Made by a program: the position numbers and the translations under genes
In this document: positions 4,365 through 25,893 of the stretch, one piece after another
Layout: every line of letters starts with the position of its first letter
Numbering within the stretch: position 1 is the first letter of the stretch
Notes under the pieces: model-generated
The model's database searches: none
What the model saw: only the letters and a program-made list of their open reading frames with translations
Told to the model about the DNA's origin: nothing
Source of the DNA: a virus
Direction: 5' to 3' (one strand)
UHGV virus genome: UHGV-1613375
Length of the DNA: 25,893 nt

Positions 4365-4973
4365 ATGGACTATTTTTACATAGCAACTAAATCGCAAAAT
4401 CCTTGGGTTAAGTATAGGCCTTTGGCAGTAGGAGATTTAGCTAGCACCTCATTCCCAAATCCCTTTTTTAATTATTTCTTAAGTTCAAACATCCCTCCAA
4501 TACCAGTAAATGTTAACGGGCATCTAACTGACTATACGAGAATGCAGTGGCTTTATGGCCTAAAGACAGGGTCACTTACTACTAAGTGTTCTGTACAGGA
4601 TATAGCGGCAGTTGGTCAAGAATTGGCTATGCATTTTTGTAAATATACTAGAGAACTGATTTGGGAAGCCGTTCGAGTTGAATATTACCCAAAAAAGCCT
4701 TCAAGACAGAAATGCTTATGGGTTTCACAAGGTGAAGAAAGTCTTTACTATTGGATTTCGCAGTTGGGATTGGGGGACAATCAGACTGTGTTCAGAGTTG
4801 AGTTGGATGGAGTTATACATGAGGCGAGTGATGAACATTTGATGAATGACGATATACCGTATGATATTGCCTTAGAAAAAGCTCATAAATATTGGAGTGG
4901 TGAAATAGTTGATCCGTTAAAAAAGGAAATACTTTTTGAAGGAAATATGCGGATTCTAGAGCACATTTTATAG
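4365..4973 (+). CDS. Hypothetical protein, AT-rich cargo gene between lysis cassette and HNH/terminase; no recognisable motif
   Basis: 202-aa ORF in an AT-rich island (by eye) with AT-rich flanks, followed by a weak hairpin plus T6. No signal peptide, TM segment or catalytic motif recognised. Confidence 0.6.
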   Translation: MDYFYIATKSQNPWVKYRPLAVGDLASTSFPNPFFNYFLSSNIPPIPVNVNGHLTDYTRMQWLYGLKTGSLTTKCSVQDIAAVGQELAMHFCKYTRELIWEAVRVEYYPKKPSRQKCLWVSQGEESLYYWISQLGLGDNQTVFRVELDGVIHEASDEHLMNDDIPYDIALEKAHKYWSGEIVDPLKKEILFEGNMRILEHIL

Positions 4974-17139: not shown

Positions 17140-17174
17140 GAGTGGTAAAGTTTGTGCTGAATGTAGGAGAGAAT

Positions 17175-17663
17175 ATGAAGAAAATGTTTATATTGTTGTT
17201 GGCTGCAGGACTGCCATTAAACTCCTTTGCGAAGCCAGTAACGGAAAAGCAGCTTGCTACATACTTTATAGATAACGTTAAAACTTCAGCAGATAAGAAT
17301 ATAGATCTAGATGTAGGTGGAATAAATAGACTGTCTGTAATATGCCCAGCAAAGTCGGCAAGTGGAACTCTTTTAATAAAAAAAGCATCCTACGAGTTTA
17401 ATAAAGGTATTGGTGTTTTTGATTTTGAAAATAACTCACAATCTGCACCATTGGCTTTTATTGTACCAATTAGTGAGGATGAAAATAACTTTGACTCGGA
17501 AATTATTGGTTTCTCTTTTGCATTTAAAATGCCAAGAGGGCAATTCTTTGTTGATGTTACGAAATCAGGGAAGGTAAAGGCTGGCGTAAATATTAGTGGT
17601 GAAAGCGGAATTACTTATTCATCATGTAGAATAGATACTCATAATGTTGATTATGATCTTTAA
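17175..17663 (+). CDS. Predicted secreted/periplasmic protein of unknown function (AT-rich cargo gene inside the tail module)
   Basis: SD AGGAG at 17165-17169, 5 nt before the ATG; the track's upstream start at 17142 is less likely. N-terminal signal peptide MKKMFILLLAAGLPLNSFA with probable SPase I site after SFA; two Cys in the mature part. Strongly AT-rich (by eye); followed by a strong terminator. Confidence 0.7.
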   Translation: MKKMFILLLAAGLPLNSFAKPVTEKQLATYFIDNVKTSADKNIDLDVGGINRLSVICPAKSASGTLLIKKASYEFNKGIGVFDFENNSQSAPLAFIVPISEDENNFDSEIIGFSFAFKMPRGQFFVDVTKSGKVKAGVNISGESGITYSSCRIDTHNVDYDL

Positions 17664-21142: not shown

Positions 21143-22187
21143 ATTTCAGCGCCCGACGCTGGCAGAAAATATCAGTATGCTCCGTAACGATTTATTCGCC
21201 AGGCTGGACGTCAGCGACACGCTCCGGCGCATGGATGAAGACGTGCGGGCAAAGGTGTATGCGGCGGCGCTGCATACGGTTTATGGGTACATCGATTATC
21301 TGGCAATGAATATGCTGCCTGACCTGTGCGATGAGTCCTGGCTGGCACGACATGCTGCGATGAAACGGTGTCCGCGCAAGGGGGCCACGGCTGCCAGCGG
21401 GTATATGCGCTGGGAAGGTGTCAGCGATGGCCTGAAGGTGACTGCCGGGAGCGTGATTCAGCGCGATGACCTGGTTCAGTACACGGCAACTGCCGATGCA
21501 ACCAGCTCCGGTGGTGTCCTGCGTGCGCCGATCACTTGCTCAACTACAGGCGCGGTCGGTAACGCTGACGACGGTACGGCATTAATCCTGGTCACGCCGG
21601 TGAATGGTCTGCCGTCTTCCGGTGTTGCAGATACCCTGACTGGCGGATTCGATACTGAAGATCTGGAAACGTGGCGCGCCCGCGTCATTGAGCGGTATTA
21701 CTGGACGCCGCAGGGCGGGGCTGACGGGGACTATGTCGTCTGGGCTAAAGAAGTGCCCGGCATTACCCGCGCATGGACATACCGTCACTGGATGGGAACG
21801 GGAACTGTCGGTGTGATGATTGCCAGCAGTGACCTGATTAATCCCATTCCGGAAGAATCAACGGAAACGGCGGCAAGACAACATATCGGGCCACTGGCCC
21901 CGGTGGCAGGCTCTGATTTATATGTATTCAGGCCGGTGGCGCATAAAGTGGATTTTCATATCCGCGTGACGCCGGACACACCGGAAATACGGGCTGCCAT
22001 CACCGCCGAGTTGCGTTCGTTCCTGCTGCGTGATGGTTATCCGCAGGGAGAACTGAAGGTGTCGCGTATCAGTGAAGCGATTTCCGGTGCGAACGGGGAA
22101 TACAGCCATCAGTTGCTTGCACCGGCAGACAATATCTCCATTGCAAAAAATGAACTGGCGGTACTGGGGACGATTTCATGGACGTGA
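21129..22187 (+). CDS. Baseplate J-like protein (Mu gp47-like)
   Basis: 352 aa, the size and position of baseplate J. Confidence 0.75.
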
Positions 22188-22762
22188 CAAACGATGATTA
22201 CATCCGTCTGTTGTCGGCACTGTTGCCCCCCGGTCCGGCGTGGTCATCCAGCGATCCAGCGATTGCCGGTGCGGCACCGTCATTAACCCGCGTTCATCAG
22301 CGTGCGGATGCCCTGATGCGGGAGCTGGATCCGCGCACCACCACTGAACTGATAAACCGCTGGGAGCGTCTGTGCGGCCTGCCGGATGAATGTATTCCGG
22401 CGGGAACGCAGACCCTTCGCCAGCGTCAGCAACGGCTGGATGCGAAGGTTAATCTGGCGGGCGGCATCAATGAGGATTTTTACCTTGCACAGCTTGCTGC
22501 CCTGGGCAGACCAGACGCCACCATCACGCGATACGACAAAAGCACGTTCACCTGCTCATCGGCCTGTACTGACGCAGTGAATGCGACGGAATGGCGGTAT
22601 TACTGGCAGGTCAACATGCCAGCCGCCACCAACACCACCTGGATGACATGTGGCGATCCCTGTGATTCCGCACTGCGTATCTGGGGCGATACCGTTGTCG
22701 AGTGCGTGCTTAACAAACTCTGCCCTTCGCATACCTACGTAATTTTCAAATATCCGGAGTAA
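22178..22762 (+). CDS. Tail protein (Mu gp48 / YmfQ, DUF2313-like)
   Basis: 194 aa with several Cys near the C-terminus, immediately upstream of the tail fibre as in e14/Mu-type tails. Confidence 0.65.
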
Positions 22763-22765
22763 TCC

Positions 22766-25141
22766 ATGCATCGTATAGACACGAAAACCGCGCAGAAGGA
22801 TAAGTTCGGCGCGGGTAAGAACGGTTTTACCCGTGGTAACCCCCAGACCGGCACGCCTGCCACCGATCTGGATGATGACTACTTTGACATGTTGCAGGAA
22901 GAACTTTGCAGCGTGGTGGAGGCCTCCGGTGCCAGTCTGGAGAAGGCGCGGCACGACCAGCTGCTTACCGCGCTTCGTGCGCTGCTGTTAAGCCGCAAAA
23001 ATCCGTTTGGCGATATCAAATCGGATGGCACGGTAGAACGCGCTCTTGAAAATCTGGGGTTACAGGATGTAAAAGCTGGTTCATTGAACAATCTGTACAC
23101 TAACCATTCCCGTAGTGTCTTAATGGAATTGCCGTTATTATTCCCAGACTACGATACGGTGCTGGCTGCTCAGTCTGGTGCGGAATATATGTATCCACAG
23201 GGATTTGTGGTGACAGGAGAAAAAATCTATCTGAGTTATACCGTTGAGCCAAAGCAGACACGGAACGTTATAGTTCAGTACACAACATCCGGCGAATATG
23301 AGGGATATTATTATGTCGATAATGGAGGTCGTGGCGTTGTCAGCGAAGGCCTTGTGGTGACAACGGATTACGGTGGATTACGTTTGTTCATGTCAGGAGA
23401 AAATGGATTACTGAAACAGTTTTCGCTTGATGGGGCAATTTCTGGTTCAGTATTGCCGTTAATTGATGAACATGATGTCGGTGTTTACAACCAGTTCAGC
23501 TATCGTAAAAACCGCTGGGTGGTTGAACAGTCAGCGCCGGAAGTGGGAGGCCTGATCACCCGCACAGTATTTGCGGTGTATGATTTTCAGTTTCGTCGGA
23601 CAGGGACATTCACATTACCGTTGCATGATTCCGGATATATCACGGAAAGCACAGACAGCTATGCAAGACGCTTCACAAAACGTCAGGGAATTGCTGTGGG
23701 AGACGATTATATTGCCTGTTCTTATGGTGGCTATTTTAATACCGGGGCATCAGCCGGATTTAACCAGTTTCAGGGGGTTAAGGTCTTTTCTCCGGATGGA
23801 GTAAAGCAGCAGGAATCCATTCTTCATCCCCAAAAAATGATAGATGTGCTTACCAGGCAGGGTTTTACACCTTCGCGCATTGAGAACGAAGGAATTTGTA
23901 TTTCTGACGACGGCGGCAGTATATATTCGCTTTATATCTTTCTGGAGCGTGGGTTACCACAGGCTTATCAGAAAGGAATTGTTCTGATGAAAGAGTTCAG
24001 TACTGGCAGAGATGCTATTGATTTTCGTCAGGCAGCCTGGTTGTACACGGGGTTTGATGTGTCTCATGCCAGTATTGGAACATTTCCCCGTAGTGCCCAG
24101 GGGTTGGTAAACCCGGTGTTGGGGACGGTATTCACATCCCTGTCTGAAATTCTGGCATATATGCGTTCTGTGAGTCAGAAATGGTTTTGTCTGCATACAA
24201 CCACGACACCGATTAAAGATCTGAGTGGAAATGACATTCCTGCTGACAATTATGTGTTCATCAAGAATGCTAATAACCAGACATTCTATATAACGCAGGA
24301 GTCAGCTGAAGGTGGAATAAAATATAAAGCTGTCACTACAGACAGCGGAGAATATGGTTTTCAGCGACAAAGAGAGGCAATCTGGTCCAATGTTATCACC
24401 ATCGCACAAAAGAGCGATGGTGAGGATCAGTTTAATCGTATTATCGCTGCCTCGAAAAGTGGTTCAGGTAAAAATCAGGATAAAATACTGGTAGTTGACC
24501 AACAGGCATCAGAGGGGAATAACACGCTGGTAATTGGCGGTGGTTCATCTGTGTTCAGGTCAGCGACAGTGATTGATTTTGCAACGAATCAGGATGCAAA
24601 TGCCACAGGAGGAGAAAAGAGATGGCGCATAGATTCATCAGGAAATCTCCGCCCTTATACAGATAATACGTATTCGATCGGTTATGCCTCATGGCGACCC
24701 GCACAGGTTTATTCAGCTACGGGAAGTATCAGTACATCAGACCGGACTCATAAACAGGACGAAACAATTCTGTCGGATGCAGAAAAAAGGGTTGCCAGAA
24801 AGCTGCTCGGGTATATCTGTCGGTTCCGTTTCAGAGATGCAGTGTCCAGCAAAGGGAACGCAGCCAGATGGCATGTAGGAGTGATTGCTCAGGACGTACA
24901 GAAGGTCTTCTCTGAGGAAGGGCTGGACGCTTTTGATTACGGTATTTTGTGTCGTGATGAATATCCGGCGGAATATGAAGTGGTTTACGGGACTCGTATG
25001 GAGCTTGGTCCTGACGGACTCCTTACAATGGAAGAATACGATACCGGAGAGCGCAAGCTGGTCAGGGAGGCTGGTGAAATAATGTCTGTAAGGAATGATG
25101 AGCTGCATTATTTCATGCTGGCATCGCTGTCTGGCCAGTGA
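22766..25141 (+). CDS. Tail fibre with conserved N-terminal attachment region, AT-rich variable distal region and C-terminal intramolecular chaperone (peptidase S74-like) domain
   Basis: 791 aa, last structural gene. GC falls sharply after roughly aa 100 (by eye). C-terminal ~135 aa (nt ~24737-25138) carries SDRTHK...[16 protein letters not shown]...[10 protein letters not shown], which resembles the self-cleaving chaperone domain of endosialidase/T5 L-shaped fibres (recalled). Confidence 0.85.
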
Positions 25142-25152
25142 ATAATATTAAT

Positions 25153-25177
25153 GTAAGGAGCGATATAAGCTCCTTAC
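25153..25177 (+). terminator. Perfect 9-bp inverted repeat after the tail fibre gene (putative terminator or stabilising hairpin)
   Basis: GTAAGGAGC(25153-25161) / GCTCCTTAC(25169-25177) with 7-nt loop; only a scattered T-tract follows (CATTTTATG). Confidence 0.4.
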
Positions 25178-25834
25178 ATCATGCATTTTATGCTGCGATT
25201 ATGCGTTCTCCTGTTGTTTGTTGCTGAGAGTGAAACACCGGAAACATACTGGTGGATTGAAATGTTCTGTGTGGCAGCGTATGAATATGTCGTGGTAGGG
25301 TGGATAAAAAATGCCCGTGATGATCCGGGCAACATAGCAGTATGCATTTTTCTATTGTGAACTGATGCATTATACAAGTAATGCTGTTATTGAGGAAAGT
25401 TTAAAGAAGCGGCTCTTCTCCGCCTGTAAAGTTTGGTCATTATTGCTTTATATATAAGTTCCACCAGTAGGCGATCATCTATGATGTTGGCATATCGACT
25501 TTGTATAAGAGGTTTCCGGTCGGAGATAAATGAAACCGTAGCACGTCGTATGCAAGAACGTGCCACGGCTGGCTGGCGAACTTTCGATAGTGCGAGTATT
25601 GAATGATTTCCAGCTGTTACTGATTTTATATAACTGCAGTGGAATTATTCAACACACAGGCAAAACGGAATAAGCTGAGAAAAAAAAGCGTGCTTTCCCA
25701 ATCTGGGGTAAATCACATCTGAATGACACCTGAAAACAGGTGGTGGCCTCAAGAAGGCTTGGAATATTCTTCTTTAATGTTATGTAATTTATTGATTGAG
25801 CCTGTTCAGGATTCTGTGTAAATACCTTTTCTCA

Positions 25835-25893
25835 GAAGTGGCCGTCCAGGCGGTCACCGAACTCGATAATAAAGCGGCTCATTGCCATACGCC
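25835..25893 (-). CDS. 3' end of a minus-strand ORF entering from beyond the window
   Basis: Reverse complement of the last ~60 nt reads ...RMAMSRFIIEFGDRLDGHF then stop (TGA complementary to 25832-25834). Only ~19 codons are in the window; identity unknown. Confidence 0.2.

Follow-up and report, generated by a model that had tools for sequence, protein, structure and literature searches.

The tail-fibre gene at 22766-25141 in the virus genome UHGV-1613375 is very probably an in-frame chimera, in which a resident baseplate anchor has been joined to an imported, self-chaperoning receptor-binding cassette that stands in place of an e14-type fibre segment. We analysed a 25,893-nucleotide (nt) stretch of this genome (the window), and the argument draws on what the analysis itself provides, namely gene structure, breakpoints, domain homology, fold and the absence of a tfa gene. 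In the list of open reading frames (ORFs), the plus-strand frame opens with ATG and runs uninterrupted from codon 1 to codon 791, with coordinates that match exactly those called in a preliminary description of this DNA. It begins 3 nt beyond the stop codon of ymfQ/gp48 (at 22762), and because ymfQ/gp48 ends there and a GGAG lies upstream, we read the fibre as the last gene of the baseplate operon. The five preceding genes form a Mu-type baseplate set with Pfam matches to Gp44/GpP domains, Phage_Mu_Gp45, GP46, Baseplate_J and Phage_Mu_Gp48 (E-values 1e-23 to 8e-53), and the terminase, portal, protease, capsid, sheath, tube and tape-measure ORFs upstream in the window are all full length.

The edges of the imported DNA can be located by comparison with related phages. 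Genes upstream of the fibre are ~96% identical in DNA to their SfV/e14-like relatives, and the fibre gene itself stays ~96-97% identical to SfV and to our e14-like comparator (strain MEI2B-1023, locus L005) up to 23034; identity is partial to 23061, and beyond that there is none. At the protein level the anchor shares 93% amino acid (aa) identity with the e14-like Stf over residues 1-104 and 71% with SfV orf21 over residues 1-139, bearing out the earlier proposal that the N-terminus is the resident baseplate-attachment region. PHROG 1396/2617 ('tail fiber') spans aa 1-104, and Pfam gave no match on aa 1-67. The right breakpoint lies at ~25461-25470; similarity to L005 resumes at 25470-25632 (91%), covering the end of pinE and the DNA that follows it, and residues 165-184 of PinE matched at 25471-25530 by tblastn (90% identity, E=7e-8).

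In SfV, orf21 (a 216-aa fibre) is followed by orf22, a 'tail fibre assembly protein', and then by a terminator, and L005 carries, in order, ymfQ, stf (251 aa), tfaE, an inverted tfa, an inverted gp53-like fibre tip and pinE. The orf22 of SfV, and tfaE with the second, inverted tfa of the e14-like prophage, agree with the statement in the preliminary description that Mu/e14-type tails pair the fibre with an assembly gene. When SfV orf22 and two e14-type Tfa proteins were searched against the 25.9-kb window by tblastn, no homologue was found (best E 0.33), and the alternative fibre tip of L005 had no match there either. Viewed as an e14/SfV fibre, the window protein has the anchor and lacks the gp53-like tip and adjacent tfa beyond nt 23061. 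The ~2.4-kb block (23035/23062 to ~25460) thus appears to have replaced the fibre tip, both tfa genes, the alternative tip and ~89% of pinE, and because the right end of the cassette falls inside pinE, the event would have deleted the whole fibre-tip/tfa/alternative-tip/invertase segment. The preliminary suggestion that this fibre was swapped for one of another class can therefore be made specific, with a trans-acting tfa system replaced by a cis-chaperone cassette between located breakpoints. The window shares its baseplate context and N-terminal anchor with SfV orf21/orf22 and with the e14 system StfP-TfaP/TfaE-StfE-PinE (of the Mu S/U-Gin type), but lacks their distal fibre, both tfa genes, the alternative tip and the invertase, of which 20 pinE codons remain. 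Judging by gene content, host range would here be fixed rather than switchable, and the chaperone would act in cis rather than in trans.

Positions 22000-25797 of the window are 100% identical in the complete genome of strain Ecol_AZ146, where the fibre closes, on the right, a prophage of ~37 kb whose early region is lambdoid and whose integrase adjoins tRNA-Ser (serU)/mtfA. The attR of this prophage, a 31-bp exact copy of the tRNA-Ser 3′ end, lies 760 bp past the fibre stop and is followed by the host gene zinT, so the fibre is the last gene of this E. coli prophage. This arrangement excludes a tfa gene just beyond the window, a possibility that the preliminary description had raised, and in Ecol_AZ146, which is free of insertion sequences (IS) here, there is no ORF >70 aa between the fibre stop and zinT. 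The earlier observation that no tfa-like ORF follows the fibre holds; its companion, that only AT-rich non-coding DNA does, holds for the low GC content and the lack of any ORF >70 aa, but the flank also contains a terminator hairpin, the pinE relic and IS1414. Scans of the window and of locus L001 returned no complete tRNA.

Base composition changes along with homology. GC content is 0.573-0.581 in the upstream baseplate genes (0.61-0.66 at third codon positions, GC3) and 0.565 in fibre codons 1-90 (22766-23034; GC3 0.66), falls to 0.449 in aa 100-657 (23062-24736; GC3 0.41), and is 0.494 in the chaperone part, aa 658-791 (24737-25141; GC3 0.49), and 0.386 in the 3′ flank (25142-25460). The sharp drop within the fibre that had been noticed from the sequence is thus real and abrupt (0.565 to 0.449), but its supposed end at ~24700 is wrong: the chaperone part is only slightly higher, the prophage level is never regained, and the low-GC block takes in the chaperone domain and, continuing 3′ of the stop codon, reaches ~25460 and further. 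Low GC by itself would not be decisive, since other islands exist in the window (1-3 kb, 4-5 kb and 17-18 kb, at 0.39-0.43); the shift in the fibre is significant because it coincides with the homology breakpoints. The fibre had also been pictured as three modules, whereas we find two, the chaperone belonging to the same low-GC cassette as the middle. A separate origin of the chaperone domain was ruled out because the T7-like and P22-like homologues described below are colinear over aa 108-786 and GC stays low.

Anchor and cassette meet in a conserved linker, which we aligned from the window, Ec55, FDAARGOS_1289, the e14-like prophage and SfV. This 96-nt sequence occurs in 1452 of the 5426 complete E. 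coli genomes searched, in fibre genes that carry such annotations as stfP, gp53-like, glycine-rich or 'phage tail protein', and by its abundance it would be an obvious substrate for homologous recombination. The block behind it (23062-25460) was found in 58 of the 5426 genomes, always at at least 99% identity, and several of these 58 are named O25b:H4-ST131 (sequence type 131). Two other prophage backbones carry the block. In Ec55, a 792-aa ORF with the N-terminus MQNLMPPINTPDQ… lies next to ypdE behind a different Mu-like baseplate set, and the shared block begins at 22955 (22955-25248, 99.7%). In FDAARGOS_1289 (and FP4), an 813-aa ORF with the N-terminus MGSITLMAKNDF… belongs to a DUF2612/baseplate-J myovirus next to pphA, and the shared block begins at 22991 (22991-25652, 98.8%) and includes the pinE relic. 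All of these chimeras, with three anchors in three prophage backbones, are in frame and joined at the same linker, and the terminator hairpin, which lies inside the shared block, is carried in all three. For lytic coliphages it has been proposed that conserved motifs on either side of receptor-binding domains, among them a terminator-like one downstream, act as hotspots of recombination (PMC10408124). Because the pinE relic and the DNA following it are native to e14-like prophages, we infer as the direction of transfer that the substitution most likely arose in a backbone of the window type and that the pphA prophage took the block secondarily.

The cassette ends in a Peptidase_S74 domain, as the preliminary description had suspected. 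Pfam PF13884 matched aa 658-720 over the full profile (1-58 of 58; 38.6 bits against a cut-off of 22, E=1.3e-9), and phmmer matched the C-terminus to PDB sequences of T5 pb1 (4uw8, 1e-16), the phi29 gp12 chaperone (3gud, 1.8e-14) and EndoNF (3gw6, 1.1e-13), as well as to the phage tail fibre 7y5s and two tailspikes. In EndoNF, phi29 gp12 and T5 pb1 the S74 domain nucleates the trimerisation of the preceding beta-stalk and afterwards cuts itself off by means of a Ser-Lys dyad, which Schulz et al. are said to have placed at Ser911/Lys916 of EndoNF in 2010. Both motifs singled out earlier, SDRTHK and a 13-residue core, are present and align with their phi29 gp12 counterparts. S658-DRTHK aligns from residue 1 of 3gud, the released phi29 gp12 chaperone, which begins SDERHK, in agreement with the claim that the serine of this motif occupies the cleavage position, and the core motif aligns with HFGVIAQQIVKVF of phi29 gp12. 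In 4uw8 the serine is aligned to an alanine of T5 pb1, which we take to be an S-to-A mutant. Ser658 and the lysine at +5 are conserved in every S74-bearing homologue of our alignment A1; Ser658 (codon 24737-24739) is the predicted nucleophile and new N-terminus and Lys663 (codon 24752-24754) the predicted general base. Cleavage there would split the precursor into a mature chain of 72.3 kDa (aa 1-657) and a released chaperone of 15.3 kDa (aa 658-791).

In the monomer model described below, the S74 domain is positioned C-terminally behind a beta-rich stalk whose last ~55-70 residues are homologous to the pre-chaperone segments of EndoNF and T5 pb1. The 3gw6 sequence aligns to query 590-782 and 4uw8 to query 605-748, so that aa 590-657 correspond to the end of the EndoNF stalk, and Pfam End_tail_spike matched weakly at 621-657. 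A C-terminal S74 domain of ~135 aa with Ser first, Lys at +5 and a beta-rich stalk before it is the arrangement of EndoNF (phage K1F), phi29 gp12 and T5 pb1. The cargo differs, being here a five-bladed propeller and not a six-bladed sialidase of glycoside hydrolase family 58 (GH58), a pectin-lyase beta-helix or a thin fibre tip; the virion is that of an SfV/e14-type contractile-tail prophage, and cleavage is here a prediction. By analogy with these homologues, the window fibre would trimerise and cleave itself.

For aa 100-657, Pfam and NCBIfam hold no family, and the region belongs to the PHROGs 'tail spike protein' group phrog_1171 (E=3e-133). An exhaustive HMMER search found 281 cluster representatives, most of them matching aa ~115-511 (query 8-404 of a 493-aa query), so that the second globular domain accompanies the propeller in most homologues; Pfam was scanned across the family with ten representatives of the 102-sequence alignment. 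In Kayfunavirus phages (T7-like; EcoIv39_Milel, HC6, ZCEC02, U8 and others) the module stands behind T7 gp17-N at 37-46% identity over aa 108-786, and it is also found behind P22 head-binding and Tail_spike_N domains and, in P0015 (63% identity), behind a P2 tail-collar N domain. These T7-like, P22-like and P2-like tailspikes are colinear with the window protein over aa 108-786 at 37-63%, through propeller, second domain, stalk and S74, but their N-terminal anchors differ and none is close enough for a donor. Outside the enterobacterial phages, a Staphylococcus phage protein matched aa 84-510 at 30% identity (E=2e-47). In the homologue P0043 (1395 aa), a GDSL/SGNH esterase follows the propeller, a different enzymatic add-on that replaces the S74 stalk.

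An AlphaFold2 model built on 102 homologues has a mean predicted local distance difference test score (pLDDT) of 84, with values >90 for aa 110-530. The 20 strands that it places between residues 115 and 410 agree with a propeller of five blades, each four-stranded. Foldseek against the PDB placed Staphylococcus receptor-binding proteins at the top (NF5 9m7x, 80alpha 6v8i, phi11 Gp45 5efv and P68 6iab; E ~1e-13 to 1e-9), and the best match in BFVD was a Staphylococcus myophage tail fibre. The structure prediction of the central domain that the preliminary description had recommended thus gives a five-bladed propeller, and this fold, with homologous spikes behind other anchors, supports its view that the middle is imported and of a receptor-binding type. 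Identity in the structural alignments to the solved Staphylococcus proteins (5EFV, 6V8I, 6IAB and 9M7X) is 11-15%, and the family profile misses them. The relation would thus be one of fold to Gp45 and one of family to another Staphylococcus phage group; the fibre 'works like' a Gp45-type receptor-binding protein and is not a member of the Gp45 sequence family. The ligand cannot be wall teichoic acid because the host here is Gram-negative.

phi11 Gp45 consists of a stem, a five-bladed propeller 'platform' and a 'tower'; it ends in two tower domains at residue 636 with no mention of a chaperone domain, its best non-phage match is glutaminyl cyclase, as in the present case, and an N-acetylglucosamine (GlcNAc) cavity lined by Q165, T211 and Q330 has been proposed (PMC4901313). 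In the present family, an x-(Q/E)-(G/F)-hydrophobic motif recurs in every blade, where it coincides with or directly precedes the first strand, presumably the inner one (P-Q145-G-F, S-E194-G-L, N-Q243-F-S, R-Q307-G-I and N-E375-G-I). Among the 102 homologues Q307, E373 and E375 are invariant (102/102), with K305 in 101 and E194 in 98. The spacing of Q145/E194/Q307 mirrors that of Q165/T211/Q330 in Gp45, which suggests the same central pocket, by spacing and not by superposition; from these likenesses we infer the receptor class of the propeller. The second globular domain would take the 'tower' position of phi11, an equivalence suggested by domain order only. An endosialidase reading of the middle was rejected, as the GH58 Pfam domains (End_beta_propel/End_N_terminal) are absent and the blades are five, not six. 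Given this fold and the absence of any endosialidase catalytic-domain family in the window protein, the 'endo-N-acetylneuraminidase' labels on several homologues probably derive from the S74 domain alone. A link to the ST131-specific phages LM33_P1 and ES17 was likewise set aside, their fibres being pectinesterase/K5-lyase-like and of a different fold (PMC7885116), and our literature searches found no characterised coliphage member of this propeller family.

The chimera has to be weighed against other accounts of the same gene. Within 22766-23122, RefSeq/PGAP labels codons 1-100 'stfP pseudogene, missing C-terminus' (or 'gp53-like') and annotates as the coding sequence a 672-aa 'tail fiber domain-containing protein' from Met120, so that ~100 codons would be a dead stfP fragment and the functional gene would be without its baseplate anchor. 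The same split is annotated in every genome inspected (four strains, all three backbones), though the frames of 791-813 aa are intact. There is neither a stop codon nor a frameshift between codons 1 and 791, no Shine-Dalgarno sequence was found upstream of Met120, and three independent anchors all in frame to the same cassette would be very unlikely by chance. Homology to complete spikes of other phages starts at aa 108, 5′ of Met120, which itself falls within the first (closing) propeller strand of the AlphaFold2 model (aa 115-123), and the 791-aa form is on record at NCBI as well, where it has 365 member sequences. The 791-aa reading is far more likely, and we give the split very little chance. 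Less credible still is that the GC drop reflects a fast-evolving receptor-binding region that diverged in place, with no horizontal replacement. Such regions do evolve fast, and low-GC islands exist elsewhere in the window, but at the left end ~96% nt identity becomes undetectable within ~30 bp and is back at the pinE relic, the distal part belongs to a fold family other than that of the gp53-like tip of the relatives, and the same block stands at 98.8-99.7% identity behind unrelated anchors. The breakpoint data already refute divergence in place, to which we attach virtually no probability.

Several points also weigh against replacement by an imported receptor-binding cassette. No nucleotide donor for the cassette was found among 50,697 phage records; aa 1-110, anchor and neck, are of low confidence in the AlphaFold2 model (pLDDT 40-76 for the anchor); the model is a monomer, so that trimer geometry and pocket are putative; and the 102-homologue profile retrieved no Gp45, 80alpha or P68 chain from the PDB even at E<=10, for which reason a sequence-profile link to phi11 Gp45 was dropped in favour of one at fold level. 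The pinE relic is present in the FDAARGOS_1289 backbone as well, and the replacement may therefore have occurred in an ancestral e14-like prophage and not in this exact lineage. Signs of decay of the prophage in several strains temper claims on present function. IS1414 sits 656 bp downstream of the fibre gene in the window, the Ecol_AZ146 integrase is frameshifted, ISEc52 lies inside the fibre gene in strains S4, S12 and FCI29, the FP4 fibre coding sequence is truncated, and HSP425 has a large internal prophage deletion. All of this would fit a fibre that is a non-functional passenger in a cryptic, decaying prophage, its architecture without a current biological role, but the window and most of the 58 cassette genomes have an unbroken ORF, and the whole late operon of the window consists of full-length ORFs; we consider a passenger rather unlikely. 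Cassette copies at at least 99% identity are too young to judge purifying selection, and a passenger would in any case be compatible with the architectural explanation, as it concerns present activity only. A somewhat better case, though still short of an even chance, can be made for the propeller as an enzyme and not a passive adhesin; it would then represent a new family of capsule or O-antigen depolymerase, and the protein would be a true tailspike that cuts a path down to the outer membrane. Invariance of Q307/E373/E375 and near-invariance of K305/E194 in homologues ~25-30% identical, whose phages infect Gram-negative as well as Gram-positive hosts, would sooner be expected of a catalytic site than of a receptor pocket, which tends to vary; the module resides in T7-like and P22-like podoviruses, which as a rule have enzymatic spikes (PMC11990801); and there are stand-alone homologues of ~340 aa whose N-termini look by eye like signal peptides. 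Yet the closest structures (phi11 Gp45, 80alpha, P68 and NF5) are described as binders with no reported activity (PMC4901313), the invariant carboxylates might instead coordinate a structural cation on the axis of the propeller, the separate esterase domain of P0043 suggests that the propeller of that protein is the binding part, and no glycoside-hydrolase or lyase Pfam family was matched.

The features of the fibre system and its right flank are collected in Table 1.

Table 1. Coordinates of the chimeric fibre gene, its parts and its flanking features in the window.
Feature	Coordinates	Strand	Remarks
Ribosome-binding site GGAG	22756..22759	+	6 nt 5′ of the fibre ATG
Chimeric tail-fibre/tail-spike gene, complete (probable chimera)	22766..25141	+	791 aa; 87.6 kDa precursor
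Resident N-terminal baseplate anchor, SfV orf21/e14 StfP type	22766..22965	+	aa 1-67; ~96-97% nt identity to SfV and the e14-like prophage
Conserved linker, left crossover zone common to all anchors and distal modules	22966..23061	+	aa 68-99; includes …ALENLGL
Five-bladed beta-propeller 'platform', presumed receptor-binding, possibly catalytic	23108..24010	+	aa 115-415
Second globular alpha/beta domain	24011..24370	+	aa 416-535; pLDDT mostly >90
Beta-rich distal stalk ending at the predicted cleavage site	24371..24736	+	aa 536-657; pLDDT 66-87
Peptidase_S74 intramolecular chaperone domain and stop codon	24737..25141	+	aa 658-791
GC-rich hairpin, 11-bp stem, then CATGCATTTT; likely operon terminator	25151..25179	+	10 nt past the stop codon
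pinE invertase relic	25471..25533	+	last 20 codons and stop; in-frame stop just upstream
End of IS1414 (IS256-family), prophage right arm; not part of the fibre system	25798..25893	.	~100 bp before attR; AZ146 identity stops at 25797

Beyond the fibre gene itself, sequence from parts of the 3′ flank (25142-25797) recurs in 3164 of the 5426 E. coli genomes. The segment at 25470-25797, the pinE relic and the DNA following it, is 'prophage-end' sequence, found as well where lambdoid prophages end beside NleG-like genes; the label 'capsid protein' that PGAP sometimes gives to part of it looks like an artefact of annotation. Directly after the fibre terminator, a 59-aa hydrophobic ORF (25181-25360, plus strand) has no family and is probably not a gene, since the cassette boundary cuts it in Ec55. 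Rfam gave sub-threshold matches only on the 3′ region (CssrB, 29.6 bits against 76; AgvB, 22.9 bits against 56); the match to AgvB, a prophage anti-small-RNA, lies at 25306-25359 on the minus strand (E=0.087) and is possibly due to chance, and a terminator-like hairpin with a T-run is found on the same strand at 25312-25331. Elsewhere in the window, the other low-GC islands hold ORFs on the plus strand. A 463-aa ORF (1492-2883, GC 0.39-0.43) with an N-terminal AAA_16/STAND-like P-loop NTPase (Pfam E=8e-10) lies just upstream of the holin, a classic moron or defence slot, and PADLOC gave a weak mad8 match only (2e-4). A DUF2441 ORF (4365-4973, GC 0.41) lies between the lysis genes and the HNH/terminase genes, and a 173-aa ORF (17142-17663, GC 0.40), for which neither Pfam nor PADLOC gave a family, stands between the genes for tape measure and DNA circularisation and resembles an accessory gene inserted in the tail operon.

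Taken as a chimera of resident anchor and imported cassette, the fibre would be the only receptor-binding protein of a temperate, SfV/e14-like myovirus with an HK97-type head and a Mu-type contractile tail, integrated in serU. Its first ~67-99 residues would form the resident anchor, which fits into the baseplate wedge of Mu-gp47/gp48 type, and everything beyond the linker an imported low-GC cassette of about 2.3-2.4 kb, brought in by homologous recombination within the linker at the left crossover. A phase-variable fibre of two specificities with trans-acting chaperones would thereby have become one of a single, fixed specificity with a cis-acting chaperone. During assembly three chains would trimerise, nucleated by the Peptidase_S74 domain as it templates the beta-rich stalk; Ser658 with Lys663 would then cut the Thr657-Ser658 bond and the 15-kDa chaperone would depart. 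The mature 72-kDa trimer would present three five-bladed propellers of the phi11 Gp45 'platform' type, the central funnel of which (Q307/E373/E375 with the nearly invariant E194/K305) may bind a cell-surface saccharide.

Modular exchange of receptor-binding domains behind genus-specific anchors is already well documented, and within a single genus, Teseptimavirus, a cis chaperone domain alternates with a separate Mu-like Tfa (PMC11990801). The fibre is in this sense a textbook host-range module swap and not a new kind of system. We also entertain a bolder proposal, which we regard as speculative and on balance doubtful: that the ~2.3-kb block of linker, propeller, stalk, S74 domain and terminator is a self-sufficient 'plug-in' host-range cartridge spreading among unrelated E. 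coli contractile-tail prophages, notably in ST131, and that its propeller founds an undescribed family of catalytic depolymerases in phages of Gram-negative and Gram-positive hosts. If true, such a cartridge would need no partner chaperone gene and would be bounded by a ubiquitous recombination linker.

The automatic annotation is wrong in the RefSeq genomes inspected (four strains, three backbones) and hides an intact receptor-binding protein, one carried by part of the pandemic ST131 lineage. The fibre offers a clean natural example of host-range change in a temperate phage, in which one recombination in a linker put a fixed, self-chaperoning spike in place of a phase-variable fibre. The scar, the pinE relic, is still visible where a Pin-invertible system of two specificities was traded for a fixed one, and the same cartridge is found in two other prophage backbones at 98.8-99.7% identity. 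The Gp45-like propeller family of enterobacterial phages has neither a Pfam model nor a characterised member in phages of Gram-negative hosts, and the propeller is a reasonable target for work on receptor specificity and for the engineering of tailocins or phages that do without an accessory chaperone.

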